A stretch of 64,000 nucleotides of DNA from an uncultured Thermoplasmata archaeon (GTDB lineage Archaea; Thermoplasmatota; Thermoplasmata; Lutacidiplasmatales; UBA184), in the NCBI GenBank assembly GCA_963708255.1, contig CAVPSE010000005.1, positions 182,347 through 246,346 on the forward strand, in the 5' to 3' direction. Of the stretch, positions 23,941 to 53,930 are shown piece by piece. The stretch's first letter is position 1. Each line of letters begins with the position of its first letter. The notes beneath the pieces are model-generated. The model ran no database searches. It worked only from the letters and a program-made list of their open reading frames with translations, and was not told where the DNA came from. The position numbers and the translations under genes are program-made.

Positions 23941-23949
23941 TCGGTCCGG

Positions 23950-31798: not shown

Positions 31799-31991
31799 GT
31801 CGGTGCGCCCGGGGTGGCACAGGATGCGGTAGAGGTTCTGTACGGGCGGAATCTGTCACTGCAGGCTCAGGGCAGAGCCATCGAGAGCAGAGGATCGGAC
31901 GTGTCCGCGAACCACAGGGCCTCGGTCGGGCATGGGCGGATTCGTGCCAGTATTTGGACCCTCTGACCCCGACAAGAAGCGAGTAGAAGAG
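31799..31991 (+). repeat. Conserved noncoding element X, copy 1 (about 190 bp), direct repeat of 53741..53930
   Basis: An alignable block (tcggtgcgcccgg.gtggc.cagga.gcggtagaggttctg...cagggcagagcc.tcga..gcagaggatcggac...ccgcgaaccacagggcctcgg...tatttgga.c.tctg.cc..acaagaagcgagtag). Substitutions are scattered and not biased to third codon positions. No credible ORF. Confidence 0.6.
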
Positions 31992-32310
31992 TCCGGCTCA
32001 CCTGTTCTTGCGGGGCTCCCCCCGTCCCATCCTAGTGGCCTGGGCCGGGGTGGTCCGGCGGGATGTCAGACGACGGCGAGAACGAGATCGTGTCGGTGTC
32101 GCCGGGGCCGGATGCGACAACAGCGAGACCCGACCGGGGTGCTCTAAGAAGGGTGGCACCCGCCCGGAGCGCGAACCCGGACCTGCCACGCCCGATGGCC
32201 GGCGTTCCATCGATTAGGGTCGGGGTAGGGCGAGGGTAGGGCCGGGCACGGGCACGAGTGGGACCTGTTTGTGACCTACCCGTAAATGGAGGCGGGCCGG
32301 TCGGGCGCTG

Positions 32311-33465
32311 ATGACGCGACCCGGAACGCTCGCCCTTGTAACGACCGCCGCGCTGCTCATGCTGATCGTGCCCGTCGCCGCCCAGGCCCAATCGGTGCCG
32401 TCCAACACGCCGGCGGCTCACACCCCCGGGAGTTCCGGGGTAAGCGCGGTGTTCACGATGACCGACAATGCGACCGCCAACTCGGTCCTGGCCTACCGGA
32501 TCGCCTCCGGCGGCTCCCTCGTCGCCTATGGAGCGTTCCCGACCCACGGGGCCGGCCTCGGCGCCAGCCTCGCCGACCAGGGGTCCCTGGCCCTCACCGC
32601 CGATCACCAGTGGTTGCTGGTCGTCGACGCGGGCAGCGACCAGGTGTCGGTGTTCCACGTGAACGCACCGGGTTCCTCCCTTCCGCTGCTCACGTACACG
32701 GACCGTGTCGCCTCCGGCGGAGTCCTCCCCGTCAGCATCACGATCCATGGATCCCTGGTGTACGTCCTGAACGACGGGAACTCGACGACGGCCGGCACCA
32801 TCGCCGGCTTCACCCTGAGCAGCTCCGGCCGCTTGGCGGCCCTCGTCGGCTCGTCACTCCCGCTGAGCACCCCCACCCCGACCGGATCGGCCCAGATCTC
32901 GTTCAACCCCGCCGGCACGGTCCTCGCGGTGACCGAGAAGGCCACCAGCGTCATCGACACCTACACGGTGGCGACGACGGGGCTCGCCTCAGGTCCGACC
33001 AGCACAGCCTCGAACGGGAGCACGCCGTACGGCTTCGCGTTCTCGCCGAACGGCAACCTTGTCGTCAGTGATGCCGGCCCGGGCGCCCTCTCCAGCTACA
33101 GCATCTCATCGACGGGCGCCCTGACGGTCGTCAGCGGGACTGTGTTGGACAACCAGTCGGCACCGTGCTGGGTCTCGTTCGCCGAGGGCGGGCGGTACGC
33201 GTACACCACCAACGCCCACAGCAACTCGATCTCGACCTACCAGGTCGCGCGGAACGGGAGCCTGGTGCTCCAGGCGTCCGTCGGCGCCACCACGGGTGCG
33301 GCCCCCACAGATGTCGCTGTGACCACCGGAAGCCAGTACTTCCTCAGCTACGATGCCGGTGCCGGGGAGATCGATGTGTTCTCCCTCGGGACCTCCGGCT
33401 CGCTGACCGAGGTCGCCAGCGTCTATGGCCTGCCGGCCACGGCGGAGGGGCTGGTCGCGTTCTGA
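32311..33465 (+). CDS. Secreted 7-bladed beta-propeller lactonase-family protein (6-phosphogluconolactonase / 3-carboxymuconate cyclase-like)
   Basis: Signal peptide MTRPGTLALVTTAALLMLIVPVAAQA. Repeated blade pattern (SV.HVN..GS, V.V.NDG, VSDAGPGALSSYSIS, TNAHSNSISTYQV, YDAGAGEIDVFSL). Confidence 0.7.
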   Translation: MTRPGTLALVTTAALLMLIVPVAAQAQSVPSNTPAAHTPGSSGVSAVFTMTDNATANSVLAYRIASGGSLVAYGAFPTHGAGLGASLADQGSLALTADHQWLLVVDAGSDQVSVFHVNAPGSSLPLLTYTDRVASGGVLPVSITIHGSLVYVLNDGNSTTAGTIAGFTLSSSGRLAALVGSSLPLSTPTPTGSAQISFNPAGTVLAVTEKATSVIDTYTVATTGLASGPTSTASNGSTPYGFAFSPNGNLVVSDAGPGALSSYSISSTGALTVVSGTVLDNQSAPCWVSFAEGGRYAYTTNAHSNSISTYQVARNGSLVLQASVGATTGAAPTDVAVTTGSQYFLSYDAGAGEIDVFSLGTSGSLTEVASVYGLPATAEGLVAF

Positions 33466-33525
33466 GCGGTGGATGCGCCGGGGGGTGCCCGTGATAAGGG
33501 GCACCTCCCTCGGAAACAGGCCGTG

Positions 33526-33879
33526 ATGAACCCCGCGTTCCGCTCACTGATGTGGTACCTCCTGATCGGGACCCGTGGGGGACCGAACCGTTGGAGGCTG
33601 CTCGAGGAACTGCACCGGTCCCCGGCCAACGCCCACCAGTTGGCCTCGTCGCTCGGCCTCGATTATCGGACCGTCCGGCACCACCTGAGGCTCCTGGAGC
33701 AGAACGGCGTGGTGGCCCGGACCGTCCCCGGGGCGTACGCCCCGCCGTACGAGCTCTCTCCCTACCTGGCGGAGCACTTCGAGCTCGTCCGGGACACCGT
33801 TCGGACCCCTCCGACGCCCCGGGGCCGCCGGGTGCGCTTCCCGGCCGCGGATCGGCGCGGACCGGAGGCGGCACTATGA
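33526..33879 (+). CDS. ArsR-like winged-helix transcriptional regulator
   Basis: MNPAFRSLMWYLLIGTRGGPNRWRLLEELHRSPANAHQLASSLGLDYRTVRHHLRLLEQNGVVARTVPG. Stop-start overlap (TATGA) with the next gene. Confidence 0.55.
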   Translation: MNPAFRSLMWYLLIGTRGGPNRWRLLEELHRSPANAHQLASSLGLDYRTVRHHLRLLEQNGVVARTVPGAYAPPYELSPYLAEHFELVRDTVRTPPTPRGRRVRFPAADRRGPEAAL

Positions 33880-34163
33880 CGAGCGCCCTGATGGAGGCCA
33901 GTATCGTCCTAGGGATCGTCAGCATCGGCCTGGCAGCGGGGCTGTTCGCGCTCTACCGTCGGCTCTACGCCCAGACCCGCAGCCACTTCGGGCTAGCCCT
34001 TCTGGTCTTCGCCGGGGCCTTCGTCGCTCAGAGCGCCCTCACAGTGTTCTCCGACCTGTCGGCGATGCCGCTCATCCCGGATTCGTTCGTCCCGTTCCTC
34101 TTCGGTATCGGGCTGTGCGAGGCCACCGGCCTCGCCGCGATGGTCTGGACCGCCTCGCGATGA
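33876..34163 (+). CDS. Small membrane protein (2-3 TM helices), co-transcribed with the ArsR-like regulator
   Basis: MTSALMEASIVLGIVSIGLAAGLFALYRRL...LLVFAGAFVAQSALTVF...FLFGIGLCEATGLAAMVW. Confidence 0.45.
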   Translation: MTSALMEASIVLGIVSIGLAAGLFALYRRLYAQTRSHFGLALLVFAGAFVAQSALTVFSDLSAMPLIPDSFVPFLFGIGLCEATGLAAMVWTASR

Positions 34164-34372
34164 ACCGGCGAGGTCGGTCCCTTCGCGCGGCGGGCCGCCA
34201 TCCTCGTTCCGGATCACCCACGGCTCCGGCTCTACGTTTCGAGCCCGGGCCGGCGGTGGCCCGGTTCAGCCGACGTCCGTGATGCGAACGCCCGAAAGCT
34301 CGACTCAGCCACGAGGGTGCCGAGCCCGAGTTAGAAGAGTGTCAAGGCAAGAGGCAACCCCCCCTCGGGCGA

Positions 34373-34714
34373 GTGCCACTCGAAGCATCGTGGGGGGTGA
34401 TAAGTGCTTATGAGGGCATAGCTCTGCTAGAGCGTATGGCACTCGCCACATCCGCGCGCCGGGTCGACGTCACCCTCGGCACCACAGAAATTGTGATGGC
34501 GCTGCTCCAGGAAGCCGGGGACCCGGTAAGCCGGAACTGGCTCCTGGAACGGCTGAAAGAGTCTGGTCACACGACCACCCGTGCCCGCCTAAACCGGGCG
34601 TTAGCGTTCTGCCTTGACATGGGCTTGGCGATCGAGGGGTCCAAAGGCATCCAATGGACCCACACGACGAGTCCGAGTCTCCACCGATCCCCTGCGAAGG
34701 GCAAGCGGCTCTGA
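34373..34714 (+). CDS. Small winged-helix-like protein, paralog of 47245..47546
   Basis: ...GDPVSRNWLLERLKESGHTTTRARLNRALAFCLDMGLAIEGSKGIQW aligns with ...DGPVSRNRLLDQLAEWGHSTSRQSLNAAVAFLAADGNVVEGSKGILW. GTG start in the track. Confidence 0.5.
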   Translation: MPLEASWGVISAYEGIALLERMALATSARRVDVTLGTTEIVMALLQEAGDPVSRNWLLERLKESGHTTTRARLNRALAFCLDMGLAIEGSKGIQWTHTTSPSLHRSPAKGKRL

Positions 34715-34772
34715 AGATAGGATCGGTTCGGCACCGGCCGGTACGGTCGAATCGACCGTCGCCCCCGAAAAA

Positions 34773-34954
34773 GTCCGTCCATGTTCAGACCGGGGCCGGC
34801 GTCCGCCCGAGCGGGGCGTGATCCCGGTCCAAGGGCTCGATCCCTCCGGAAGCCGTGCGACCCCGATCCATCTCAGCACGTTGCACCCCCGGTCAAAGCA
34901 GATGAACTGGTTAGATGCGGGGCGAGGGACTTGAACCGTCGGGCGGCTCAAATA
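34773..34954 (-). repeat. att-like repeat A: degenerate copy of the tRNA-Leu 3' end plus trailer (long form, about 180 bp, shares extra upstream homology with repeat G)
   Basis: Minus-strand reading ...GAGCCGCCCGACGGTTCAAGTCCCTCGCCCCGCATCTAACCAGTTCATCTGCTTTG... versus the tRNA ...GGGTTCAAATCCCTCTCCCCGCATCGAACCCATTCATCTAGG. No complementary 5' acceptor strand upstream. Confidence 0.6.
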
Positions 34955-35356
34955 CTGTAGAAAACGCGTTTTGCTGTCCGTCTTCCCGTCCCCACGAAGC
35001 ACCCTCTTCCGAGCTACGGCTCGGATCGCCATTCAGCTACTCCCTCTCGGGGTTCCGATCGCTGAAGCCGCCCGGCCCGATTGGCCCCCGGAGACACCCC
35101 TTCTCGTAGGGATCAACTTGCCCAACGGCAGGCGGAGCCCTACGAGGGTGGGCTCACCCCCCGCAGAAACTCAGGCGCGACCCGCGGGCCTCCCGTCCGC
35201 CCACCCCAAGGTCTACCTGGCACCCCGGACAGCCTTCGGCCCGCTCCCAAAAGGATCCAGCTCCGCCGTGGTCGACCTCGTTGGGGTCGCCATGTCACTT
35301 ACTTGGCACTAACAATTAGGGTTAGGTTTAAATCACTCGCCCAAGTGGACTCCACT

Positions 35357-35788
35357 ATGGAAACCCTCCAGAAGCTGACCCGTCGACAGCTGGAAGCCCT
35401 CCGAGCGGTCGTCGTCAAGGAGACTCCTGAGAAGGGAGTCTCCCTCAAGCTCATCGCCTCCACGATGAAGGTCAGCCCCCCCTCCGCCCTCGCCCATCTC
35501 ACCCCCCTCGAGGAGCTAGGGCTGGTAGAGCGCTATCGGGGGAAGAGTCGCCTCACCGAGCGCGGCCGGGGGACGTGGCTCGAGTACCAGCGTCATCACC
35601 GCGTTGCCGAGACGTTGTTCGGGAACCTGGGCCTAGCTCCGGACGCCAGTTGCTCCGCTGCGCGGGAGATTGACCTTGCGATCTCGCACCGCACCGTGGA
35701 AGACGTCTGCCGGGCTGCCCAGCACCCCGTGACCTGCCCGCACGGCGAGCCCATCCTCCCTTGCCATTCCTCGAACAGAGGAAGCTAG
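35357..35788 (+). CDS. DtxR/MntR-family metal-dependent transcriptional repressor
   Basis: METLQKLTRRQLEALRAVVV... (HTH) plus ...LTERGRGTWLEYQRHHRVAETLFGNLGL...HPVTCPHGEPI, a DtxR-type metal-binding and dimerisation region. Confidence 0.7.
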   Translation: METLQKLTRRQLEALRAVVVKETPEKGVSLKLIASTMKVSPPSALAHLTPLEELGLVERYRGKSRLTERGRGTWLEYQRHHRVAETLFGNLGLAPDASCSAAREIDLAISHRTVEDVCRAAQHPVTCPHGEPILPCHSSNRGS

Positions 35789-35818
35789 CCCGACGGCTCG
35801 ACATAGAGGACTTCGCAA

Positions 35819-36930
35819 ATGCAGAAGTGGACCAAGATCTGGGTCAGCGTAGCGATCGCTCTCGTGCTCGTAGGTGGGGGGGCGTACGCCTTCCTAACCA
35901 GCACGACCCCGACCAACCCGTGCGCCGGGGTCGCGACCGGCTCAACCTCAAGCGGATCCCAGGCCGCAGGAGTCGCCACCGGCCAGCTCGCCACCCCACC
36001 TCCCTCCTCGGTGGCCGCCCAGAAGAAGACGTCGGGCTCGATCCTCAGCCCTGGGGTGCGCACTCCGAGCGGTGGACCCAGAATGGCGACCGGTTCGGGA
36101 GTGATCGAGGTCGTCGCCGCGGAGAACTTCTGGGGAAGCCTCGTGTCCCAGCTCGGTGGGAATGACACCTCCGTCCTGAGCATCGTTTCGGATCCGAACG
36201 CGGACCCCCACGAGTACGAGGCCAACACCTCCGACGCCATCGCGATCACCAATGCCCAGTTCATTATCGTCAATGGGGTGGGGTACGACGATTGGGCCCT
36301 CCAGCTCATCTCGGCCGAAACGACCCCCAACCAGCTCGTCCTGAACGTAGGGGATCTGAACGGGGTCACCGTCGGTGGAGGGGTCGTGAGTGGCAACCCC
36401 CACCAGTGGTACAATCCCCCCTACGTCAACCACACCATCGCCGCGATGTACGCGGATCTCGTGCAGATCGCGCCGTCCGATGCGGCGTACTTCCAGCACA
36501 ACTATGGGGCGCTGAACGCGTCGCTCGCCTCCCTCTACGGAGAGGCCACGAGCATCAAGACGCACTTCGCCGGCACCGTCGTAGCGGCCACCGAGGACAT
36601 CTTCGTGTATCTTGCCAACTTCACGAACCTCGACCTGGTCTCCCCCCGGAGTTCATGGAGGCGGTCGCGGAGGGGAACGATCCGCCGGCCCAGAGCGTCG
36701 TGACGTTCCAGTGTCAGCTGGAGAGCGGGAGCGTCAAGGTGCTGGTGTACAACGAGCAGACCGTGACACCTATCACGATGAGCCTCAAGTCGATCGCGGC
36801 CGAGAACAACGTCACGATCGTGGGGGTTACCGAGACGATCCAGCCTCCCGGCGTGTCGTTCCAGACATGGATGGACGCTCAGTACCTGCAGCTCTACAAC
36901 GCACTGAACGCAGACCAGTTGGGCCAATGA
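35819..36930 (+). CDS. Metal (Zn/Mn/Fe) ABC importer substrate-binding protein, TroA/ZnuA cluster-9 type; frameshift near 36640
   Basis: N-terminal TM/signal MQKWTKIWVSVAIALVLVGG plus a Ser/Thr linker. Core GVIEVVAAENFWGSL...DPHEYEANTSD...NPHQWYNP (TroA-like His/Asp ligands). C-terminus in ORF 36292..36930. Confidence 0.65.
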
Positions 36931-36973
36931 GGGCACGGCATGAGTCCCCAGGGACCTGGGGCACGAGCCCTCG

Positions 36974-37784
36974 ATGGGATGGGTCGCCTTGAGCGGCGAT
37001 CTGGTCATTCAAGCGGATCACCTGGAGGTGGGGTTCCGCGACAAGGTCGTCTGGCGCGACGCCCAGTTCGACGTCCGGCGCGGTGAGTTCGTCGCCGTGA
37101 TCGGCCCGAACGGGGCCGGCAAGACGACGCTGTTCCGGATGCTCCTCGGCCTCCAGCGACCCCTGGCCGGGCTCTCAGGCGTCTTCGGAGGCGTGCCCCG
37201 GCGAGGAAACGACCGGATCGGCTACGTTCCTCAGCGCCACTCCATCGACATCGATACCCACATCGACTGCGAGAGTTTCGTCCGTCTCGGCGTTACCGGG
37301 ACCCGGTGGGGGCCGGGGCTGGCCCGCCGGGAGGAGCGGAAGGCGGCGGCGAGCGCCCTGGAGGCCGTCGGTGCGACCGACCTCGCACCCAAGTGCATCG
37401 GTACCCTTTCCGGCGGGGAGCTCCAGCGGATATTCCTCGCCGAAGCGATGGTGGGGAACCCAGAGATGCTCCTCCTGGACGAACCGCTGTCAAACCTCGA
37501 CATCCGACGGAGCCGTGACCTGGTGGCGCTCGTCTACCGGCTGGTCCGATCCGCGCAACGTGACCACCCTCCTCGTGGCCCACGACATCAACCCCCTGAT
37601 CCAGTGCCTCGACAAGGTGATCTACATCGCCAACGGCCGGGTGGCCACGGGATCACCGGCCACCGTCCTCACTTCGGAGAGCCTGACGGCCCTCTACGGG
37701 GTTCCCGTGGAGGTGCTCCATGACTCTCGGAACAACATCGTGATCGTCGGCGGCGAGGAGAACGTCGGGGGGGAGCACGGATGA
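36974..37784 (+). CDS. Metal ABC importer ATP-binding protein (TroB/ZnuC-like); frameshift near 37540
   Basis: Walker A GPNGAGKTTLFRML; signature LSGGELQRIFLAEA; Walker B LLLDEPLSNLD. C-terminus ...TTLLVAHDINPLIQCLDKVIYIANGRV in ORF 37371..37784. Confidence 0.65.
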
Positions 37785-38687
37785 CGTTCGGGTTCAGCTG
37801 GAACCTCGTCACCGACCTGCGGGTCATGTGGCAGTTCGAGTTCATGCGCAACGCCTTCGAGGCGGGAACGATCATCGCCATCGTCGCAGGGATCATCGGC
37901 TACTTCGTGGTCCTCCGCCGGTCGGCGTTCGCCACGCACGCCCTCGGACATGTGGGGTTCTCGGGGGCTGCCGGCGCGGTCTTCCTCGGAGTGAACCCGG
38001 TCTTTGGGCTGCTAGCGTTCACCATGTCGGGGGCCGCCGGGATGGCCGCTGTTAGGGCGGCGGGCCGCGGCGCGGGACATGGAGATCGGCACGGTCCTCG
38101 CGTTCATGCTGGCCCTCGGGCTCCTCTTCCTGAGCCTGTACAAGGGATTCGCGACGGAGGCGTACTCGATCCTCTTCGGAGAGGTCCTGGGGATCAGCGA
38201 CGCGGGTGTGATCTTCACCCTGGAGGCGAGCGTCGTCGTCCTGGCCGTTCTGCTTCTGATCTACCGCCGCCTGCTCTTCGCTTCCCTCGACGAGGACGTG
38301 GCGGAAGCGAAGGGGCTTCCGATGCTGTCCCTGGGCCTCGCGTTCATGCTCCTGCTGGCGGTGTCGATCTCGATCGCGGTCCAGGTCATCGGCGTTCTGC
38401 TGATCTTCGCGCTGATGGTGACCCCCGCGGCGACGGCCGTTCGACTGACGCGGAGCCCGCTCACGGCGATTCTCGTATCCATCTCCGTCGCGGTCTTCTC
38501 GGTCTGGCTCGGTCTGTCAATCGCCTTCTTCTCGGTCGAGCCGTATCCCGCGAGCTTCTTCATCGTTACGACCTCGTTCCTCCTCTACGTAGCGGTTCGC
38601 GGCGCGGGCGCGCTTCGGGGACGGTTGGTGCCTCGGACGACGCGCGATGTGCATGCCGGCGCGTCGATGGGACGGGGTCCGGATTAG
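37781..38687 (+). CDS. Metal ABC importer permease (TroC/ZnuB-like); frameshift near 38060
   Basis: MTFGFSWNLVTDLRVMWQFEFMRNAFEAGTIIAIVAGIIGYFVVLRR... then ...LAFMLALGLLFLSLYKG...LIFALMVTPAATAVRLT in ORF 38079..38687. Confidence 0.65.
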
Positions 38688-38958
38688 AATCGACGGATGC
38701 CTAGGCCTGGCCCGCCAGCCGGGGACGGTCCGTCGCGGCCGCCGCCCGGGACCGGGAAGAAGCTTCGGGGAGAGGACGGAGGAGGAACCGAACGGCCCCA
38801 TCGGCTCCCCGAGGCCCCGACGGTGCGGGTCTGCCTGCCGTGAGAGATCGCACCTAACGGCGAGGTGCGGACCCACAGTGGGGTGGGCCCCCCTACCTTG
38901 GGCGTTCGGGACATAGGATGCGAACCGCCGGAGTGTTCGAACTCGTCCTACGCCGTGC

Positions 38959-39087: not shown

Positions 39088-40564
39088 TCAGTCCGATTCG
39101 AGGTCCGGAGGGTGGAAGAGGCGGGCATACTCTTCGCGATGGGCGGGACTATCAAGGCGGGTGTGGACCTGGGCCCGGTAGAGGTGGTTCTTGCCGGTCG
39201 CGATGTACGCGATGAAGATGGCGATCATGGCGGGCGCGAGTATCTCGTAACTCCCCGTCATCTCGACCGCCATGACAAGGACCGCGAGGGGGGCCTTGGA
39301 AATCCCACCAAAGAAGGTCATCATCCCCACGATCGCGAAGGCGGAGATGGCCCCGACATCGAAGAAGTTCGGCAGGAGCGAGTGGAATGCGGCACCGACG
39401 CTCGCCCCGATCATCGATCCGATCACGACCGAGGTGCCGAACAGGCCCGCGGCTCCCCCACTCCCCACCGTGAGTGATGTCGTGACCATTCGAAGGGGGA
39501 TCGCGACCGCCAAGGCAACCAACCCGAGCGGAACGAGCGCTGTGAGGCCTACTTGGCCCAGCACGACGGCCTGTACGAAACCGTAGCCCACATTTACCGC
39601 GGACAGCGCGGCGAAGTGCCCCTGCCAAGGCAGGAGGAAGTAGACCGCGAGGATCGCGAGCCCGGAGAGCCCGGTACCGACCGCGACCCGTACGGACAGA
39701 GGCCATGGAAGCGCCGCGAACCGTCGATGGGTGCCCCAGAACAGGCGCACAAAGACGACCCCGACCCCGGCGCACAGCAGCCCGAGAAGGACGTAGAACG
39801 GGAGTTGAACGGGATTCCAGTCGAGGTTGGCGGGGGTCCCGAACAGGGTGCCGAAACCGTAGATCGAGGCGTAAATCGAGTAGCTTGCTACCGAAGCGAT
39901 GATCGAAGGCACGAACACCGCGGGTTCGAAATCGCCCGTGTACATGATCTTCGGCCGCGAAGATCGCGCCTCCGAGGGGCGCACGGAAGATCGCACCCAC
40001 TCCGGCTCCGAGGCCCGTGGCAAGTGCAATGCGCCTGTCCCGGTCGCCGAGACGGAGCTGATCGGCCCACCAAGACCCGAACCCGGTGCCGATCTGGGAG
40101 GTTGGCCCCTCGCGTCCTCCGCTTCCACCCGACCCGAGGGTTAGCGCCGAGGCGATCATCTTCAGGATCGGGACTCGGCCACGGATCTCCCCGCCCCGAT
40201 TGTGGAAGGAGTCGATCGTCGCGTCCGTTCCGTGTCCGGCGACCTCGGGCGCCAGATATTGGGCGATCAGGCCGGCCCCGAGGCCCCCAAGCGCCATGAT
40301 GACCGGGAGCAGAAGGATTCGGGGGAAGCTGCTCGACCAGATGACGATCTGGGCCCCCGAGGCCCCCGGGTAGGGATAGCCGATGCCGACGATGTAAGCG
40401 AGGAAGAACTGGGTGGACTCGCTCCAGAGGAAGAAGAACAATGACGCCCCGACGCCCGCCACGATTCCGATCGGAACCGCGACGGCGGCCCAGTGGGCGA
40501 GGTCCCGGGACGCCCCGGACCACCCCGTCTGACTGGCGGTCCGTAGAGCATTCCACAGCCGCAT
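39088..40564 (-). CDS. ClC-family voltage-gated chloride channel / H+-Cl- antiporter; frameshift near 39960
   Basis: GSGGREGP (selectivity filter GSGIP-like) and GGAIFAAE in ORF 39152..40564. C-terminal TM helices ...GTPANLDWNPVQLPFYVLLGLLCAGVGVVFV...GMMTFFGGISKAPLAVLVMAVEMTG in ORF 39088..40128. Confidence 0.65.
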
Positions 40565-40687: not shown

Positions 40688-43258
40688 CTAAGACCCTAGT
40701 GGTTGGCCAGCAGGGAGGTCGAAGCCGTCGAGGACCTTCCCCGGTGGCGCGACGGGAAAAACCATCGCCACGGGTATCGTGCAACGAGGGCTGCTGCCGG
40801 GGACCGACGCATTGTTCTCTGCCTCGCCTGGTCGCTCCACCGGTACGCCCATCGCTTTACGAGGTCCGCGACGAGCATCTCGGTGGCCGCGTACCCCCAG
40901 ATCGCCAGGATACCACAGGGGAGGAACGGCGCTCAGGAGCCAGCCCTCGAAGGCGAGGAGGGATGCGATGAGTTGCGTCCCGAGCACACTGAACACAAGC
41001 AGATTGGCCGGACGGGACCTCCAGAAAGGCCCCTCGGTCCGGGTGAGGAATATGACGAAGTGGCCTGCCACCGAGAGCTTGAGGTAGATCAGCGTCTGGA
41101 GGGCGCCGCCCGAGATGTGGAAAGTGCCGATCGCGAGCAGGAGGAGGAGAAAACTGGAGGCCACCCCCGTGACGCCAATGGAGGTCGCCACTCGCATGAC
41201 GCGTCCCATCCGCCACGAGACCGGTCTGGGGGAGATCGGGGTTCGGTCGTACGCGATCGCCAGGATCGCCCCGTCGTTCAGGAGGGCGATGAGCACGATC
41301 ATGATGGCCGTCACGGGGAAGAACCCGAGCAGGAGGATCGAGAGCGTGATGAACATCAGCAGTCGGATGGTCTCCTCGATCCGGTAGATGGCGTAAGAGG
41401 TCATGCGCGCGAACGTCTGTCGCGCTTGCTGGATCGCCGTCAGAATGACGCCCAGTCCCGGGGCCGTCAGGACGACGGCCGCGGCGGCGCGGGCGGCGTC
41501 CGTCGCCCCCGCGACCGCGATGCCGACATCCGCCTTCTTCAGCGCCGGGGCATCGTTGACCCCGTCCCCGGTCATCCCGACGATGTGGCCCTGCCGTTGG
41601 AGCTCTTCGACGATGGCGTACTTGTGTTCGGGAAAGACCTGGGCGAACACTGTGGCGGATCCGACTAAGCGGGCGCGTCGCTGCGGGTCGGCTTCACGAG
41701 TCCACTCCTCGGGAACCCTGACCTCCCCGACAAGGCCTAGCTGCTTAGCGGTCTCCCGCGCGATCGCAGCCTGGTCGCCCGTGACCATCTTGACTTGGAC
41801 CCCGAGCTCCCGAAGGCCCGCCAGCACCTCCGTCGAGTCAGGGCGGAGCGGATCGAACAGGGGGATAACTCCGAGGTACCGCCATGGGCCATCCCCCTCA
41901 GCCTTGGCGACCCCGAGGGCCCGGAAGCCACGGCGCGCGATCTCCGCCACGGCGTGATCGAGCGCCGCTGTGAGGCTGGCTGTTGACCCAACGAGGGCCA
42001 GGATGGCCTGGGGGGCCCCCTTGCTCACATGGATTCGCCGGCCGTCGGAGGTGCGAACCTCGGCCTCGGTCCGCTTCCGCACCGGGTCGAACGGGTCGAA
42101 CCGGACTCGCTCGATCCCCTCCGCAACGTTGGGGGCCCCCCGGGGCGCCCAGGATGGCGTCATCGATCGGGTCGTGGTCTTCCACCCGGGATGCGAGCAC
42201 GGCAGCCTCCAGCAGCTCGGACCTTGTCGCGTCACCAAGTGGCAATGGGTCCCCGACCGTCAGCTGGTTCTGGGTTAGGGTGCCCGTCTTGTCCGAGCAG
42301 AGCACGTCGACGCCCGGCGAGCTCCTCCAGGGCCTCGAGCCGGCTCACAATGGCCTTTCTGCTGGCGAGGGAGCGGGCGCCCACCGCCATCGTCACGGAG
42401 AGCACGGTCGGCATGGCAACGGGGATGGCCGCGATCGTCAGGACCAGGGCAAACTGCAGCGACGTCAGCAGGTCGACGCCACGGAAGAGCGAGACAGCCT
42501 CGATGACGATCGCGAGCCCGATGGCCAGGGCGATGAGCGTGTCCCCGATCCCTAGGACTGCTCGCTGCAAGTGGCTCACCGAGTGAGCCTCGGCCACGAG
42601 CTGGGCGGTTCGACCGAGGAATGTCCTGGCCCCGATCGCGGTCACGCGAGCCGTACCCTCACCCCGTCGGACGATCGCCCCGGAATACGCCGAGTCTCTC
42701 GGCCCCCGGGTCACGCTCAGCGACTCCCCGGTAAGGGCCGACTGGTCAAGCTCGAGGGTCGCGCCTGGCAGGAGCACGACATCAGCCGGCACGATGTCGC
42801 CCATCCGGAGGCGAACGATGTCGTCGGGGACGAGCTCCCCGGCTCGGGAGGGAGAGCCAGTGGCCGCTCCGTAGGACCCGGGCCTGCGGGGCTAGGTGGG
42901 CCTTCAGCGCGGCGACCGCGTTGCCTGCCTGGTACTCCTCCCAGAATCCAACGACGGCGTTTACGAGCAACAGAGTTAGGATGATCGCAAAATCATCCCA
43001 GTGCTGCAAGATGGCGGCCAGGACCAGGGCTGCTTCGATCATCCAGGGGATCGGCCCCCAGAAGTAGCCCAAGAGACGCCGCCATCCACTCACCTTTCGT
43101 TCAACGACTTCGTTGAACCCTTCCCCGGCCCGCCGAGTGGCGACGTCGGAGGCGGAAAGGCCGAGCGGGCCGGCCGAAACTTTCGGGGGGCGGGTCAAGC
43201 CGGTGGGAGGGGGTGTCGCCGCGCCGCCGGCGGAAGCGGGTTTGCCGTCCCCCGACAC
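40688..43258 (-). CDS. P-type ATPase (plasma-membrane H+/cation ATPase-like, P3A-like); split into four ORF fragments by frame changes
   Basis: N-terminus in 42782..43258 (GFNEVVERKVSGWRRLLGYFWGPIPWMIEAAL). TGES and M4 in 42232..42804. DKTGTLT phosphorylation motif in 41898..42305. MTGDQAAIARETAKQLGL and GDGVNDAPALKKADVGIAVAG in 40688..42238. Confidence 0.6.
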
Positions 43259-46996: not shown

Positions 46997-47070
46997 CAAA
47001 GTAGATGAAAGAGTTCGATGCGGGGAGAGGTATTCGAACCGCCCGGCGGTTCAAACATCGCGGGAGGTGG
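46997..47070 (-). repeat. att-like repeat E (tRNA-Leu 3'-end/trailer copy)
   Basis: caaagtagatgaaagagttcgatgcggggagaggtattcgaaccgcccggcggttcaaacatcgcgggaggtgg. Confidence 0.55.
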
Positions 47071-47244
47071 CCCGCGCCGGAGTTTTCTCGCAGGGCCCCC
47101 CGGGAGATCGTCGTCCTAGGTCGGACCGCTTGGAGTGGGCGGTTCCCAACCAAAACCTGCGCAGTCCGCCTCCACCGAGAGACGGCACCACCATCGTGAA
47201 GAGGGGGGGGTATGCGTATATAGGGAGGGTGTGTATGAATGCAT

Positions 47245-47546
47245 CCATGGCGATATCGGCGAGGGCCCCGCGGCCGGTCTTCTCTCGGCCGCGGGCCAAT
47301 CCCACGCTCGAGACGATCGAGTACATCCGAGCCGCCCTTCAGGGGTCCGATGGGCCCGTGAGCCGGAACCGGCTCCTCGATCAGCTCGCGGAATGGGGGC
47401 ATTCAACCTCGCGTCAGAGCCTCAACGCGGCGGTTGCCTTCCTGGCCGCCGACGGAAATGTTGTCGAGGGAAGCAAAGGGATACTCTGGGTTCCCCCGGC
47501 GTCGGCCCAGCTACGTGAGATCATCCTCACCGGCGAGCGGCTCTGA
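47245..47546 (+). CDS. Small winged-helix-like protein, paralog of 34373..34714
   Basis: MNASMAIS...TLETIEYIRAALQGSDGPVSRNRLLDQLAEWGHSTSRQSLNAAVAFLAADGNVVEGSKGILW. A gggaggg SD-like stretch 6 nt upstream of the ATG. Confidence 0.5.
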
Positions 47547-47593
47547 CGCATCCGGGCGCCGAGGAGATCGTTCTCTCCCCGTCGGCGGCCTCG

Positions 47594-47899
47594 GTGCTCC
47601 GGTCTCTGGAAGGCTCCACGACGAAGGACGCAGGCTCGATCGCCCATCGGGTCCACGAGCTTAGGAAGGTGCTTCTGGCCGACTGCCTCCACGGAGAAGT
47701 CGTCAGGAAGCGCTCGATTCCACGCCCACTCCGGGACCGGTACGGGGTCTCGAACCTTTTCGTGGAGGACCTCCCGTCATTCTGGAGACTCCTCTACACG
47801 GTGGTTCATGAGGGCCCCGAGCGGCACGTGGTCGTTCTCGAGATCGTAGACCATCGCGTCTACGACCGCTGGTTTCCGGGAAGAGGACGTGGTCGATAG
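47594..47899 (+). CDS. RelE/ParE-superfamily toxin-like protein
   Basis: ...IPRPLRDRYGVSNLFVEDLPSFWRLLYTVVHEGPERHVVVLEIVDHRVYDRWF matches the RelE/ParE C-terminal pattern (…LYRV…V.VL.I.HRKD.Y). Confidence 0.5.
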   Translation: MLRSLEGSTTKDAGSIAHRVHELRKVLLADCLHGEVVRKRSIPRPLRDRYGVSNLFVEDLPSFWRLLYTVVHEGPERHVVVLEIVDHRVYDRWFPGRGRGR

Positions 47900-48003
47900 C
47901 GCCCTTCGGATCCGAACCTTCTCCCGGCGGCGAAGTTCGCGCCCTGTCCGTGCGGGGGGCCCGCCTCGAGCGTCCTTGGGCTCCTTTCACCTTCCTCGTC
48001 GCG

Positions 48004-48079
48004 CTCAAAGTAAATGAATGGGTTCGATGCGGGGAGAGGGATTCGAACCGCCCGGCGGTTCAAATATCGTGAAGGAAGG
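48004..48079 (-). repeat. att-like repeat F (closest copy of the tRNA-Leu 3'-end/trailer)
   Basis: ctcaaagtaaatgaatgggttcgatgcggggagagggattcgaaccgcccggcggttcaaatatcgtgaaggaagg. The minus strand has ...GGTTCGAATCCCTCTCCCCGCATCGAACCCATTCAT. Confidence 0.6.
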
Positions 48080-48867: not shown

Positions 48868-48987
48868 TGGCTATCAGCCACTTAACTCTGTCGCGGACCC
48901 GGTCGCGCAAACGCTGGGCTCCCCGACGTCGCCAGGATCGGCTGGGCACCGGCCGCTAGGATTGGATTGACCGTCGCCTCCTAAAGG

Positions 48988-49186
48988 TCCGTCCATGTTC
49001 GGATCGGGGCCAGGGTCCGCCAGTGCGGGGCGTGATTCCGGTCCACGGGCTCGATCATTCCGCAGGCGGTGCGGGACGGACGCGATCCGTCTCAGCACGT
49101 TCCACGCCGCGGTCAAAGCATTTGAAATGGTTAGATGCGGGGGGAGGTACTCAAAACGCCGGGCGGGTCAATAATCGTGGGATACG
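48988..49186 (-). repeat. att-like repeat G (long form; shares about 190 bp with repeat A, including upstream gtccgtccatgttc...ggggcgtgat.ccggtcca.gggctcgatc)
   Basis: Core caaagcatttgaaatggttagatgcggggggaggtactcaaaacgccgggcgggtcaataatcgtgg plus an extended upstream block alignable to 34773..34890. Confidence 0.55.
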
Positions 49187-49319: not shown

Positions 49320-49790
49320 CTACCCGGGGCAGAATCCTGAGTATTCGGTCGGGTAGAGTTGGATCAACACAAGGTTCAGCGCGTTCACGTCGACGTAACC
49401 TGGCGCCAGGAATCCGTTTTGGTCCGCGTTGGTGTTGATGTTCTGCTGGATGAGGTAGTCGAGACTCGACTGGGGGATACCTGTCGCGTTCGACACCGCA
49501 GGGACCTGCCCGTAGGCGTCCGAGGGGGTGATGTCCGGGTCGACACCTGAGTCGGAAGCCGTGGCGTTCCGGGGTTCGAAGAACTTGGGAGAACTGATGT
49601 TCTCCGCGATAAGCTTCGAGCCGACCTCGGTCCCGTTGCATATCATCGGACTTCCGATGGCCCCATTCGGGTTCTCTACCTGGTCGATGGCGGCCAGCGT
49701 GATCGGATACACTCCCATCAGGAGCACCGCGCAGATCGCGAGCAGGACGACGAGGGGTCGCACGTGCTCAAAGAGCGCCCTAAGCTGCAT
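49320..49790 (-). CDS. kdpC: Potassium-transporting ATPase subunit C
   Basis: N-terminal TM helix followed by ...AENISSPKFFEPRNATASDSGVDPDITPSDAYGQVPAVSNATG..., the KdpC pattern. Immediately downstream of kdpB. Confidence 0.8.
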   Translation of the reverse strand: MQLRALFEHVRPLVVLLAICAVLLMGVYPITLAAIDQVENPNGAIGSPMICNGTEVGSKLIAENISSPKFFEPRNATASDSGVDPDITPSDAYGQVPAVSNATGIPQSSLDYLIQQNINTNADQNGFLAPGYVDVNALNLVLIQLYPTEYSGFCPG

Positions 49791-49793
49791 GGT

Positions 49794-51932
49794 TCAGTGG
49801 ATCACCCAGGTTAGCACGATGTCGAGGGCCTTGATGGCCACGAACGGGAGGACCGCTCCGCCCACCCCATAGATCGCCATGTTGCGGAGGAACGTCCGCT
49901 CCGGGAGTTCCGGGCGGAACCTCACGCCGCGGAATGCGAGTGGGATGAGGGCCGGTATGACGGCAGCGTTGAAGATCATCGTGGCCAGGATCGCGGTCAC
50001 GGGGCTGTGCAGTTGCAGGATGTTGAGCTTCTGCGCGGCCACACTGGCGGGCAGCATCGCGGGGAAGAGCGCGAAGTACTTCGAGACGTCGTTCGTGACG
50101 CTGAACGTTGTGATGGCCCCCCGCGTCATCAACAGCTCCTTGCCCGTCTCGACCACCTTGGTCACTTTGGACGGGTCCGAATCCAGATCGATCATGTTCG
50201 CTGCCTCCCGGGCCGCAGCGGTGCCCGAGTTCATCGCGATCCCGACGTCCGCGATGGCCAGCGCGGGGGCATCGTTCGTCCCGTCCCCCTCGACCCCCAC
50301 GACGTGGGCCTGGGCCTGTTCCTGCTTGACCCGGGTGAGCTTGTCGGCCGGCTTCGCCTGGGCGATCACCTCCGCGATACCTGCCTCGTCGGCGATGACC
50401 CGGGCCGTGATCTCCGTATCGCCCGTGACCATCACGGTGCGGATCCCTGTCGCCTGGACCGCCGCCAAGCGCCCCCGGATCCCGGGCTTCAACTGGTCCC
50501 GGAGGTCGATCAGCCCGACGACCTTGGACCCGACGGCAACGGCCAGCGGAGTGCCACCTTGTCGGGAAATCTCCTGCGACTTCCAGAGCAGCTCGCCCCG
50601 ATTGACCTCGGGGGCGATGGCCAGCACCGCATCGACGGACCCCTTGACGATGCGATCCGGGGCTCCGGATCCTTCGAGTTCGACGAGCTTCTTCCAAACC
50701 GGCCCCCGAGCCACGTCGGCCGAGACCATGGGAAGTTCCGGACGGCGCGCGGGATTCGAACCGAAGTTGGCCAGAAGCTCCACGCCGCTGAGACGGGTCT
50801 CCGCGCTGAAGTCAATGGTCGTTCCGGCCAGGACCCGGGGGGTAAGGGGAAGGGCCAAGCCCCGAGCCGTGGCCACCTCCGCGACGGATCGTCCCTCGGG
50901 GGTCCGGTCCAGCGCCGACGCCAAGAACGCGGCCTGGCCGACGTCCGCCTCAGTAAACCCTTCGAGGGGGATGAACTGCTTGACACTGCGCTGTCCCTGG
51001 GTGATCGTGCCCGTCTTGTCGAGGATGAGCGTGTCGACGTCCCCCGCGGCCTCCACAGCCTTGCCGGACTTGGCGATCACGTTGGCCCGCCCCACGCGCG
51101 TGATGCCCGCGATGCCGATGGCAGGCAGCAGCCCTCCCACGGTCGTCGGCATCAGCGCTACGAGGAAGGAGAGAAGGATGGCGAGGTCCACCACGAAACC
51201 GAGAGAGTCGGCGAGAACGAGGAAGCTTCCCACGACCAGGATGAAGATTCCAGTGAGGCCCACGAGGAGAAGATTGAGGCTGACCTCGTTCGGGGAGCGC
51301 GGTCGGTGGGCTCCCTCGACCAGCTTGATCATGTCGTCGAGGTAGCTGCGACCGGACTCCGCGACGATCCGCATGACCAGCGCATCGGAGGCCAGAGCGG
51401 TCCCTCCGATCAGGGGATCTCCCACTTTCTTCACGACGGGGGCGGACTCGCCCGTCATGAGCGATTCGTCCAAGTACGCGGTGCCTTCGAGGACTACTCC
51501 GTCCCGGGGAACGATTTCCGGGGGCCGGAGCCGCACCACGTCTCCCGGAACGAGGCTCTTGGACGGGACGACGATCACAGTCCCATCCACGACCTTCCTC
51601 GCCAGGACGTCCTGCTCGAGCCGGCGGAGGGAGTCTACACGGGCTTGGCCCTGGATCTCGGAGATCGACTCGGCCAGGGTCGCAAACCAAACGGTCAGAA
51701 CGAGGATCAGGGTCAGGGCCACGTAGATCCACTGCGGCTCGGTGGTCAGACCCGCGAAGGCTTCCGGATCGAGGGACATCGCGCCGGTGATCACGGCAGT
51801 GGCCTCGACGATGAGCATGATGAGGTTCGTCCTCAGGAGGTATCGAGGGTCGAGCTTGCGAACGGACTGGACTACGGCCCGTTCGATCTCCCCCCGACCA
51901 AACCCACTTTCCCTCGTCTTGTGGTCCGACAT
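49794..51932 (-). CDS. kdpB: Potassium-transporting P-type ATPase subunit B
   Basis: 712-aa uninterrupted ORF with LDKTGTITQG phosphorylation motif, MVTGDTEITARVIADEAG, GDGTNDAPALA and KdpB-type TM topology. Confidence 0.85.
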   Translation of the reverse strand: MSDHKTRESGFGRGEIERAVVQSVRKLDPRYLLRTNLIMLIVEATAVITGAMSLDPEAFAGLTTEPQWIYVALTLILVLTVWFATLAESISEIQGQARVDSLRRLEQDVLARKVVDGTVIVVPSKSLVPGDVVRLRPPEIVPRDGVVLEGTAYLDESLMTGESAPVVKKVGDPLIGGTALASDALVMRIVAESGRSYLDDMIKLVEGAHRPRSPNEVSLNLLLVGLTGIFILVVGSFLVLADSLGFVVDLAILLSFLVALMPTTVGGLLPAIGIAGITRVGRANVIAKSGKAVEAAGDVDTLILDKTGTITQGQRSVKQFIPLEGFTEADVGQAAFLASALDRTPEGRSVAEVATARGLALPLTPRVLAGTTIDFSAETRLSGVELLANFGSNPARRPELPMVSADVARGPVWKKLVELEGSGAPDRIVKGSVDAVLAIAPEVNRGELLWKSQEISRQGGTPLAVAVGSKVVGLIDLRDQLKPGIRGRLAAVQATGIRTVMVTGDTEITARVIADEAGIAEVIAQAKPADKLTRVKQEQAQAHVVGVEGDGTNDAPALAIADVGIAMNSGTAAAREAANMIDLDSDPSKVTKVVETGKELLMTRGAITTFSVTNDVSKYFALFPAMLPASVAAQKLNILQLHSPVTAILATMIFNAAVIPALIPLAFRGVRFRPELPERTFLRNMAIYGVGGAVLPFVAIKALDIVLTWVIH

Positions 51933-51942
51933 TGTAGTACCT

Positions 51943-53564
51943 CTACCCGAAGATCCCGAGGATCAGGAACGGCAAGAACGCCAGGGCCGTCAGCACGAAT
52001 GTCACTCCGATCAGGGTGAGGGTGAAGGGCCAGCCGTCGGTCCTGATCGGCTCGGGCGTGTCCCGGCGGTCCTTGGTGGCAAAGGACCCGGCGATGCCCA
52101 TCATGAAGACGATGGGAGCGAACCGCCCGACGAGCATGACGATCCCCGTCGACACGTTCCAGAAGGGGGTGTTCGCGACGGTCCCCAGGTAGTCGGATCC
52201 GTTGTTCGCCGATGCCGAGGTGTACTCGTAGAACACTTGGGTGAAACCTCCCGCCCCCGAATGGGGACCGAGGATACCGGCGACGTTCCCGCTACTGTAG
52301 GCGATCGCGGCGGGTACCAGGATCATCAGGGGGTGGATGACGAAGGTCAGGACGGCGAGCTTCACGTCCCACCCTGAGATCTTCATCCCCAGGAACTCGG
52401 GCGTCTTGCCGACCATCAGGCCGACCATGAACAGGGTGAGGAACGCGTAGATGACGAGCGTCATGAACCCGACGCCGGACCCCCTGGGATCGCCTGGACG
52501 AACATGAACGTGAACAGGCTGGCCCCAGTCCTCGGGGAAAGCCCCGAGAGGTACGCATTGGTAGACCCGGTATCGCTGGAGATCGAGAAGAACTGGAACA
52601 GGACGCTGCCGAAACCCCCGAACCGCGTTTCGAGCCCGACGGGTCCGCTCACCGTTGTGAGGGAATACGCCAGGAGGGCCACGAACGGCGCGAGGACGGC
52701 CACCATGAAGGCCCGGCCGCGGCCCCTTCCCACCAGCTCCCCGTACGCGAAAATGAACGCTAGGGGGATGATGAGCATCAGGATGAGATAGACCAGGTCC
52801 GAGATGCCGTTCGGATTGGCGAAGGGGCTCCCCAAGTTCGCCCCATAGTACCCTCCGCCGTTCTGCCCCAGCTCCATGATGGAGTCGAACCCCGCCAGTG
52901 GCCCGACGACGAAGGTCTGGTGACCCCCGCCGATCAGCCCGGTGGTCAGAGTTCCGTTCAGGGTCTGGGGGACCCCGACCGCCATGAGAAGGAGGGCGCT
53001 AACGAAGGAGATCGGTAGCAGGATGGTGACCAACGACCGGAAGAAATCTGCGTAGAAGTTCCCGATCCCCTTTCCCTTCTGGATGAAGGGGCGCAGGAAG
53101 GCGAGTCCGACTGCGATGGCCGAGGCCGGAGCCACGTACTGGTTGAGCATGAGCACCAGCTGGGAGGCGACAGTAAGGGCTTGATCACCGGAGTAGTGCT
53201 GGAGATTCGTGTTCGTGATGAACGAGGCGCTGGTGTTGAAGTTCAGGTCCCACGAGAACGGAAGCAGCCCCCGGGGATTGCCCGGCAGCCACCCCTGGAG
53301 GCCCAGGACGACGTAAGTGAAGATGGCGAAAGCCGCATCGAGGAGCACGAGGGCGATGACATACTCCTTCCAATCCATCGATCTCTTGGGGTCGATGCCC
53401 GCCGCCCGGAACACGAGATTCTCGGCCTTCGAGAGGAAGCCCTCGAATGGACGAGGGGTCCCTCGGATCAGGTGGACCAAGTACCTTCCGAGGTAGTATC
53501 CGAGCAACAGGGTGAGGCCGAGCGCCAGCGCCAGTAGCTCGGCATCCGCTACCCCCTCGATCAT
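51943..53564 (-). CDS. kdpA: Potassium-transporting ATPase subunit A (K+ channel-like subunit); frame change near 52460
   Basis: ORF 52461..53564 (MIEGVADAELLALALGLTLLLGYYLGRYL...NTNLQHYSGDQALT...) continues in ORF 51943..52464 (...MTLVIYAFLTLFMVGLMVGKTPEFLGMKI...). The kdpABC gene order is conserved. Confidence 0.75.
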
Positions 53565-53740
53565 CGTGCTCCTCGGGAACCGTTGGTCCGCGAAGGCGGA
53601 GTCACCCGGTGGGCCCGGGAGTCCGCACGTTCGGCTGCGCCGAAGTGGTCGTCAGCCGGGTCCCACGCCGGGTCCGTCGACCCGGTTGGCATGGCTGCTG
53701 GTGCTGGAATTGCGAACATCGGGCCACCTCGGTCGGCGCT

Positions 53741-53930
53741 AGTCGGTGCGCCCGGAGTGGCGCAGGAGGCGGTAGAGGTTCTGAACGGACGGAATCTGCT
53801 GGAGATTCAGGGCAGAGCCGTCGATGGCAGAGGATCGGACTTCTCCGCGAACCACAGGGCCTCGGACGGGCACGGGTGGATTCACGCACGTATTTGGAAC
53901 CTCTGTCCCTAACAAGAAGCGAGTAGGAGG
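53741..53930 (+). repeat. Conserved noncoding element X, copy 2, between the kdpA start and the tRNA-Leu
   Basis: Alignable base for base with 31799..31991 (same orientation). Lies about 175 nt upstream of the kdpA start on the opposite strand. Confidence 0.6.

Follow-up and report, generated by a model that had tools for sequence, protein, structure and literature searches.

Which role is played by two closely similar DNA segments that lie far apart from each other beside an archaeal tRNA gene? The question is raised by a stretch of 64,000 nucleotides (nt) from an uncultured Thermoplasmata archaeon (GTDB lineage Lutacidiplasmatales; UBA184; GenBank assembly GCA_963708255.1, contig CAVPSE010000005.1, positions 182,347 to 246,346 of the forward strand), which is referred to in its full length as the window and has a GC content of 69%. 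It carries two copies, X1 and X2, of an element here termed X, the second of which is located 5' of kdpABC, the genes for a high-affinity K+ pump. An initial annotation had described the pair as noncoding repeats that bracket an island-like region and had considered terminal repeats of a composite element, a target duplication from a larger recombination event, and a leader or regulatory RNA that is reused in front of two minus-strand operons. Our analysis points at X as the front end of the kdpABC transcription unit in this high-GC Thermoplasmata lineage, with X2 as the native copy and X1 as a partial duplicate, a reading to which we assign a probability of about 0.72. The coordinates of all features discussed are collected in Table 1.

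The presence of a same-strand pair of about 190 bp with a spacing of about 22 kb was borne out by a computed alignment, in which X1 and X2 match over 199 aligned positions with 27 mismatches (86.4% identity) and differ by a single indel of 3 nt (TCA, 31856-31858). Both edges of this alignment are sharp and the flanks are without similarity. In a self-BLAST of the window the match has an E-value of 2.8e-58, and profile searches find two copies of X only in the 64 kb. Terminal inverted repeats were not found in the element. A chimeric six-frame translation of both copies yielded no match when compared with 5.8 billion proteins, and exact scans of genome and metagenome collections, made with a 20-mer and a 19-mer taken from the longest invariant stretch, gave 25 and 22 loci, each a chance match of about 20-37 nt.

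An answer is provided by the kdp loci of relatives, which were fetched through KdpA homologues (L052, L053, L055, L056/L057, L058, L059 and L060). L057 is a second contig with the same sequence as L056, and the eight kdp loci referred to in the following are the window and seven others. KdpA from the seven related metagenomic loci is 70-86% identical to that of the window, and the operons of L052, L053 and L055 share 80-82% nucleotide identity with the window operon. The X element is present in all seven, where it ends about 165 nt short of the kdpA start. In L052 (GCA_037024675.1; KdpA 84% identical to that of the window) an nhmmer match with E = 1e-42 places it directly 5' of kdpA, and the entire segment between the kdpC stop codon and the 5' edge of X, kdpB and kdpA included, is homologous to the window without a break. 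When scored with a profile made from all X copies, each of them reached E = 1e-34 to 1e-48, and in a search of about 230 kb of related DNA with the leader profile X1 was the only copy not associated with kdp. The neighbouring genes differ at every related kdp operon, and neither a tRNA-Leu gene nor one of the att-like repeats that surround X1 and X2 in the window adjoins any of them (within 6-8 kb). Because X is single and located 5' of kdpA in relatives with unlike neighbours, we regard X2 as the kdp operon's own conserved 5' module, X1 being an extra copy. Genes for KdpD or KdpE were not found near the kdp operon at any of the eight loci.

The 5' end of a conserved upstream block coincides with the 5' edge of X. 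Homology begins at the same nucleotide (CTACTC...) in X1, X2 and L052, and in the other clade, too, the conserved sequence sets in some 30-35 nt 5' of an AAATA box, there in the form of a TCTGACAG-N4-TCTGACGG direct repeat. As conservation begins alike in both clades, this edge is taken as the upstream limit of a promoter block and not as a transposition scar, and the block could serve as a transcription-factor site. The AAATA box is part of the sole AT-rich patch in X, a TATA-like sequence. It is kept in eight of nine X copies, the exception being L060 with AAGTA (reading TCAAGTAG), and the alignment in which AAATA is invariant excludes L060. By hand count, the AT-rich patch starts about 32-42 nt before the start codon of a small open reading frame (ORF), termed sORF1; in first-in-operon genes of this lineage an AT-rich heptamer most often begins 29-32 nt before the ATG. 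The spacing in X fits a transcript beginning 0-12 nt 5' of the sORF1 start codon, with transcription predicted to start about 25 nt past the AAATA box. A GGAG or GAGG sequence resembling a Shine-Dalgarno (SD) motif precedes the ATG or GTG in all X copies and, in X2, is situated 4-5 nt 5' of the start codon. An ArsR-type regulator was considered as a conserved divergent partner of the leader and was rejected, since the genes in question share only 27-30% identity, i.e. similarity at the family level.

At all eight kdp loci, sORF1, which is on the minus strand of the window, is open over 37-38 codons. Length differences amount to steps of exactly 3 nt, the start codon is ATG or GTG at one aligned position, and the TAG stop codon is fixed. 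The characterization of X as simply noncoding needs correction in view of this small ORF conserved in eight genomes; as for the absence of third-position bias that had been noted along with it, the differences between X1 and X2 are distributed 7/1/6 over codon positions 1/2/3 in the sORF1 frame (mismatches re-indexed by hand), so that second positions are spared. The C-terminal half of the deduced peptide features the motif L-[RQ]-x-[IVLMF]-[PLT]-[SA]-x-x-N-L-[KY]-R-(4)-[PS]-x-G-[RH]-[STD]-[LDP], in the codons of which L060 deviates from the other copies by synonymous third-position changes only (CAA/CAG, AAT/AAC, CGT/CGC, GTT/GTC, TCC/TCG, CTG/CTC). For the last 20 codons, pooled pN/pS is 0.70 in the sORF1 frame (0.48 in the larger clade) and 0.83-1.36 in the other two frames. 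The mean GC fractions at the three codon positions (GC1/2/3) are 0.69/0.53/0.81, a pattern present in each of the eight copies, and since it is like that of kdpA (0.60/0.45/0.84), the composition of sORF1 resembles that of real genes of the window.

The sORF1 peptide is basic and hydrophilic and lacks a transmembrane stretch; its predicted tryptic products include SSAIDGSALNLQQIPSVQNLYR. A single-sequence AlphaFold2 model, which is weak evidence, places the motif in a predicted helix (residues 22-34, pLDDT, the model's per-residue confidence score, about 88). Searches of Pfam and NCBIfam at E <= 10 gave no match for sORF1 peptides from four genomes or for peptides from three genomes encoded by a second leader ORF, sORF2. 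An exhaustive phmmer search over 1.84 billion representative proteins retrieved one relevant match, a protein of 75 residues that is an over-extended gene call, its last 38 residues being sORF1 of L052; a second match, to an 803-residue protein over 16 residues, was taken as spurious. With a single relevant match in a collection of this size, sORF1 is essentially unannotated. Taken from sequence comparison, sORF1 is probably translated and would constitute a new small-protein family. An ORF running across X on the plus strand (LVGAPGVAQ...) was also considered and was discarded because the two copies place its stop differently, a hand count gives a GC3 of about 0.69, and the six-frame search revealed no homologues.

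Between X and kdpA the leader contains the 3' arm of a hairpin and sORF2, in a sORF1-HP1-sORF2(HP2)-kdpABC arrangement. Hairpin 1 (HP1) is an RNAalifold prediction with an inner stem spanning the sORF1 stop codon and an outer stem that pairs the 3' end of sORF1 with a GGUGG motif outside X, and the homology of X1 and X2 stops 1-4 nt past the inner hairpin. The second frame, sORF2, is open over 46-54 codons at all eight loci; its stop codon overlaps the kdpA start as ATGA in six of them and is located 0-4 nt before the start in the other two. Only about 17 N-terminal codons are conserved and the composition is flat (GC1/2/3 of 0.69/0.71/0.71), and the peptide, if translated, is therefore not under selection, while frame and end point are kept. 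Its longest hydrophobic run comprises about 12 residues among the loci, and no such run is found in the window copy. Hairpin 2 (HP2), inside sORF2, is kept at all eight loci with 93% of its cells paired and one compensatory change from U-A to C-G in L060.

When outer stem, inner stem and HP2 are combined into one defined structure, 86% of the cells are standard-paired compared with at most 44% for slid controls. Three pairs exhibit compensatory changes, and 15-30 of 500 shuffles perform as well as the defined structure. These figures suggest that the defined structure is real. RNAalifold over the whole leader gave an unfavourable covariation term and no net support. A local hairpin of X2 (GAATCT...AGATTC) had been noted as not conserved, and this is correct; it falls in the variable N-terminal half of sORF1. 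The 8-bp inverted repeat AGAGGTTC/GAACCTCT of X2 was likewise not retained as a feature; judged by eye from the alignments it is imperfect in X1 and absent from the other clade, and it is therefore treated as chance.

These elements may act as a relay. A putative TBP/TFB promoter would begin the transcript at or just 5' of sORF1, ribosomes ending sORF1 would open the hairpin masking GGUGG, the putative ribosome-binding motif of sORF2, and ribosomes ending sORF2 might re-initiate at the overlapping kdpA ATG. A translation relay of this kind would make KdpABC synthesis dependent on translation of the leader. The sORF1 peptide itself could influence the ribosome in cis, or it could be a small basic protein that acts in trans. 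One may go further and propose that, in archaea without KdpDE, kdpABC expression is set by the leader from sORF1 through the hairpin to sORF2, which would work in cis as a translational sensor. Changes in K+, pH or the state of the ribosomes would then be perceived by the C-terminal peptide motif or the hairpins, and the signal would be passed on by unmasking of the sORF2 ribosome-binding motif and subsequent stop-start coupling into kdpA. We offer this sensor function as a tentative and rather doubtful proposal.

What, then, is X1? The kdp-leader profile matches it with E = 2e-38, and it keeps promoter block, TATA-like box, SD-like motif, start codon and inner hairpin. Its sORF1 contains an in-frame TGA after codon 19, which was made by the 3-nt insertion mentioned above, and has GAG at 31796-31798 in place of the TAG of the other copies. 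Because the ORF is interrupted and its stop is lost, X1 is most likely a relic. Homology to X2 breaks off in the spacer between sORF1 and sORF2, and no sORF2, no HP2 and no kdp fragment were found after X1. The ORFs of 125 and 141 codons downstream of it exhibit a GC3 of about 0.6, have no homologues and are not gene-like. The idea of a leader used in front of two minus-strand operons, which of the three initial options comes closest, thus applies to kdpABC, where it is supported by the seven other loci, but not to X1, which shows no sign of heading an operon. With L052 as an outgroup, unique substitutions number 10 in X1, 8 in X2 and 22 in L052. X1 and X2 are sisters with respect to L052, and the duplication consequently took place after the L052 lineage had branched off, and not in recent times. 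In the conserved C-terminal half, X1 has acquired three nonsynonymous changes in addition to the stop loss compared with one nonsynonymous change in X2. X1 is probably a partial duplicate of about 200 bp, comprising promoter and sORF1 only, that is decaying as a relic and may at most provide a spare promoter. The duplicated piece would have been cut short between sORF1 and sORF2, and the new copy would have been placed near that end of the array of att-like repeats which is most distant from tRNA-Leu. For the alternative that X1 is what remains of a second kdp cassette after loss of its middle part, no support was obtained; the sequences following X1 and following kdpC share an att-like repeat only, and this speaks neither for nor against it.

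Several observations weigh against X as promoter plus coding cistron with X1 as its decaying duplicate. X1 and X2 have changed about equally, and faster decay of X1 is visible in the conserved motif only. The kdp operon may be inactive in this genome, kdpA being frameshifted, and an inactive operon would also explain that X2 evolves no slower than X1. Taken over the whole of sORF1, variability per codon position (0.38/0.40/0.48) has no more than a mild coding character, and there is next to no constraint on the N-terminal half. In L060, GGAG is just 1 nt away from the ATG and, with this spacing, does not represent a functional SD motif. The inner stem of HP1 taken alone holds uncompensated mismatches. 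Finally, the comparative set is small (eight sequences from about five or six independent lineages), which renders the dN/dS and covariation figures weak.

The mild codon-position signal would also suit a noncoding cis-regulatory RNA or a small RNA gene, in which the open frame is incidental and X1 is a second RNA copy. By our own estimate a frame of 38 codons stays open with about even odds per lineage, since stop codons are rare at 69% GC; the hairpin at the 3' edge of X and the post-stop TAGCGCC are conserved, conserved sequence is retained in X1 despite the broken ORF, and kdp is under the control of a leader riboswitch in some bacteria without kdpDE (PMC6488665). The search of Rfam that had been recommended for both copies and both orientations, however, gave nothing relevant even at E <= 10, and this includes the covariance model of the c-di-AMP riboswitch (c-di-AMP, cyclic di-adenosine monophosphate); at the gathering threshold, tRNA-Leu is the sole Rfam match in the whole window. 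Folding energies in single-sequence folding are unremarkable (z = -0.8 and -1.4 for the two copies), the covariation term for the whole leader is unfavourable as stated above, and the N-terminal half of the block is conserved neither in sequence nor in structure. An RNA alone leaves unexplained the alternation of ATG and GTG, the fixed stop, the 3-nt steps, the GC3 excess in eight copies and the fact that dN/dS is lowest in frame. We consider it quite unlikely. The notion of a leader or regulatory RNA holds insofar as X is a conserved kdp leader and promoter, which is better described as promoter and small protein-coding cistron than as noncoding RNA.

For X1, a continued function has to be weighed as well. 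It is co-oriented with a gene for a Gly-rich surface protein that starts at 31441, 350 nt downstream, its promoter elements are intact from promoter block to inner hairpin, and overall it has diverged no faster than X2, so that X1 might have been taken over as a kdp-type promoter for transcription toward the Gly-rich gene, or might be a paralogue of the small gene that is still functional. However, the intervening 350 nt comprise an att-like repeat and no gene-like ORF, and a TATA-like box is normally found about 30 nt before the ATG in this lineage. The homologue of the Gly-rich gene in L048, the tRNA-Leu locus of a relative, follows another gene with a gap of 3 nt and without any X, and in X1 the ORF ends prematurely and the regular stop codon is gone. 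Recruitment of X1 is thus improbable in our eyes, if well worth keeping in mind. Far less plausible is that X1 and X2 mark the ends of the island, be it that they terminate a composite mobile element as direct repeats or that they were duplicated when the island of about 22 kb was assembled. The direct orientation of the copies close to both ends of the array would fit (about 200 nt and 570 nt inside), but in the seven related loci X occurs once 5' of kdpA, away from tRNA-Leu and att-like repeats, and the tRNA-Leu arrays of relatives are devoid of X. The element has no terminal inverted repeats, the window encodes no integrase, transposase or recombinase, flanks are alike only in the att-like repeats themselves, and a recent duplication is unlikely in view of the 14% divergence. 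The real junction repeats of the island are a different sequence family, resembling tRNA-Leu. We hold a role of X as island end to be extremely improbable, and neither the composite element nor the target duplication put forward in the initial annotation is supported by these findings. A miniature inverted-repeat transposable element or other small non-autonomous transposon was rejected as well, given the lack of terminal inverted repeats, the two copies in the window and one copy per kdp locus in about 230 kb.

The positions of the copies relative to the array also need to be revised. X1 had been placed left of the outermost att-like repeat, but a degenerate member of the family lies still further left, between X1 and the start of the Gly-rich gene. 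Its local alignment with the repeat at 49107 scores 37 compared with 19.5 +/- 2.2 for shuffles. X2 is 570 nt away from tRNA-Leu and X1 about 200 nt from this outermost degenerate repeat; as both copies lie inside the array, they do not bracket it. Not being island termini, they are uninformative about movement of the 22-kb region.

How does the promoter-sORF1-sORF2 leader compare with known systems? KdpF, encoded at the head of the kdp operon in bacteria and haloarchaea, is a hydrophobic single-pass membrane peptide of about 29 residues. Like sORF1, kdpF in kdpFABC(Q) operons is a very small ORF 5' of kdpA that is often missed by annotation, and by position it is the closest analogue of sORF1. 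In contrast to KdpF, the sORF1 peptide is basic and hydrophilic, does not match Potass_KdpF or NCBIfam kdpF, and is followed by a second leader ORF before kdpA. KdpF is listed among small proteins (PMC10723866). In Bacillus thuringiensis without kdpDE, a leader with a c-di-AMP (ydaO/kimA-type) riboswitch controls kdpFABC (PMC6488665), which resembles the archaeal situation in that a long conserved 5' leader precedes a kdp operon with no kdpDE beside it. Unlike that riboswitch, the archaeal leader is without an Rfam match, and its conserved part resembles a coding ORF with two simple hairpins instead of a ligand-binding fold. Control by leader ORFs and translational coupling is exemplified by the mgtL and mgtP leaders of Salmonella mgtA and mgtCBR and by ATGA stop-start overlaps. 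Short ORFs in a long leader, a hairpin over the end of an ORF and a ribosome-binding motif, and an ATGA overlap are common to these leaders and the archaeal one; no alternative terminator/antiterminator pair and no regulatory codon run was identified in the latter, and the likeness is one of analogy only. By its logic, a regulatory leader of this type would be the closest analogue. To our knowledge, attenuation of the mgtL/mgtP kind is not established in archaea. A further parallel may be drawn to Brb from the brz-brb operon of Halobacterium salinarum, a small basic regulatory protein (PMC3184054). Both would be small basic proteins co-transcribed with genes they possibly regulate; sequence similarity is lacking, and DNA binding by sORF1 is purely a possible mode of action.

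The conserved small cistron and the two-ORF leader 5' of kdpA are candidates for the control of Kdp operons without adjacent KdpDE, and sORF1 adds a small-protein family to archaeal 'dark matter'. Should the sensor function apply, a K+ pump would be controlled by way of a leader peptide, and we are not aware of such a system described in Archaea. As judged from sequence, the new aspect would be that an archaeal lineage has a small-ORF leader in front of a transporter operon, connected with a new peptide family. In acid-soil Thermoplasmata (Lutacidiplasmatales-like archaea), Kdp is thought to aid pH homeostasis (PMC9287336). The window agrees with the order Lutacidiplasmatales as described there in its GC content, its relatives from soil metagenomes and its possession of Kdp, and close homologues of DeoC, encoded beside tRNA-Leu, are labelled 'Thermoplasmata archaeon'.

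Table 1. Features of the kdp leader, the stray copy X1 and the tRNA-Leu array, with positions in the window.
Feature	Position	Strand	Remarks
X2	53734..53929	-	Promoter block, sORF1 and inner hairpin; aligns to X1; orthologues 5' of kdpA in relatives
Conserved upstream block	53898..53929	-	5' end is the 5' edge of X; homology begins at the same nucleotide in X1, X2 and L052
TATA-like box CCAAATAC	53890..53897	-	Sole AT-rich patch in X
CCGAGG, SD-like	53860..53865	-	4-5 nt 5' of sORF1 start
sORF1	53739..53855	-	GTG start, 38 codons and TAG: VVRGEVRSSAIDGSALNLQQIPSVQNLYRLLRHSGRTD, then stop; deduced amino acid sequence verified
HP1, extended hairpin	53723..53761	-	RNAalifold prediction
HP1 inner stem	53735-53752	-	Spans sORF1 stop codon
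HP1 outer stem	53724-53728 (GGUGG side)	-	sORF1 3' end pairs with GGUGG; outside X on GGUGG side
sORF2	53561..53719	-	52 codons, ATG at 53719, TGA overlaps kdpA ATG at 53564 (ATGA); outside X; deduced amino acid sequence verified
HP2 (CCGGGUCG-ACG-GACCCGG)	53668..53685	-	Inside sORF2, outside X; kept at eight of eight loci
kdpA	51943-53564	-	Pfam KdpA; one net frameshift near 52482
kdpB	49794-51932	-	Pfam E1-E2 ATPase
kdpC	49320-49790	-	Pfam KdpC
X1	31791..31989	-	Promoter block, TATA-like box 31950-31957, sORF1 remnant, inner hairpin 31792-31809
X1 sORF1 remnant	31796..31915	-	GTG at 31915; translation VVRGHVRSSALDGSALSLQ, stop, QIPPVQNLYRILCHPGRTDE...
Degenerate att-like repeat	31522..31601	-	Between X1 and Gly-rich gene start 31441; member of the repeat family
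att-like repeats	31522 (degenerate), 34887, 38953, 43632, 46337, 46990, 47999, 49107		Left of tRNA-Leu
tRNA-Leu(CAG)	54503-54587	-	ARAGORN and Rfam; anchors the att-like repeat array

The array itself consists of at least eight repeats of about 80-105 nt, each composed of the 3' end of tRNA-Leu and about 45 nt of downstream sequence and each containing a GAACCGC-CGG-GCGGTTC hairpin. The repeats delimit units of 0.65-5 kb with mostly ion-transport genes, and the cargo encodes KdpABC, a split P-type ATPase, a CLC channel, ZnuABC, an ArsR-type regulator and a lactonase. DeoC gave access to the tRNA-Leu loci of relatives (L048-L051), the backbone of which is 78-83% identical. They have arrays of their own with the same att-like repeats at the same tRNA and other cargo, and a unit of about 1 kb (47013-48038) is common to the window and L048 (85%) as well as L049-L051 (75%). 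Overall, the tRNA-Leu array resembles an array of cassettes. Another pair of direct repeats, 34719-34951 and 48934-49171 (239 nt, 81% identity), adjoins two of the att-like repeats and is probably the common arm sequence of two related units.

Frameshifts are present not only in kdpA but also in other cargo genes, namely those for the P-type ATPase (40688-42804), the CLC channel (39088-40564) and the ABC-3 permease (37781-38704), which are split. This suggests decay of island cargo, possibly including kdpA. The glutamine synthetase gene glnA (56223-57610, plus strand) differs from two relatives by about nine indels of one or two nt, and the adjacent genes for an amidohydrolase, Lrp and DeoC are intact; glnA is either a pseudogene or part of a locally poor stretch of the assembly. 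Uniform assembly errors were rejected as a cause of the frameshifts, as the indels are concentrated in glnA and in some genes of the island, next to intact neighbours, and this clustering makes real decay or local assembly trouble likelier than uniform sequencing error.

Some further gene arrangements deserve mention. In four relatives, a gene for a protein of 146-172 residues without a Pfam domain directly follows kdpC (L053, 12275-12784; L055, 9026-9466; L056, 10265-10732; L058, 7621-8139). The four proteins are 61-71% identical to each other, and the gene is absent from the window; it could encode an accessory subunit or regulator of the archaeal Kdp system. Very Gly-rich ORFs with 9-nt periodic repeats occupy 27892-31441 on the minus strand; the N-terminus of the Gly-rich gene (30976-31435) shares about 75% amino acid identity with a gene of L048 (20312-20776), and a frameshift is located near 31131. 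A tandem duplication of about 1.95 kb (4141-6085 and 6702-8647, 85% identity) encodes a protein of about 700 residues without a Pfam domain, which is about 45% identical at the amino acid level to the product of L048 17068-19161, a gene adjoining the Gly-rich gene there. Two paralogues, 20860-22026 (plus strand) and 23805-25133 (minus strand), combine a MazE/AbrB-type antitoxin-like domain with PhoU domains; they are oppositely oriented and carry a 45-nt inverted repeat (21598-21642 and 24384-24428).

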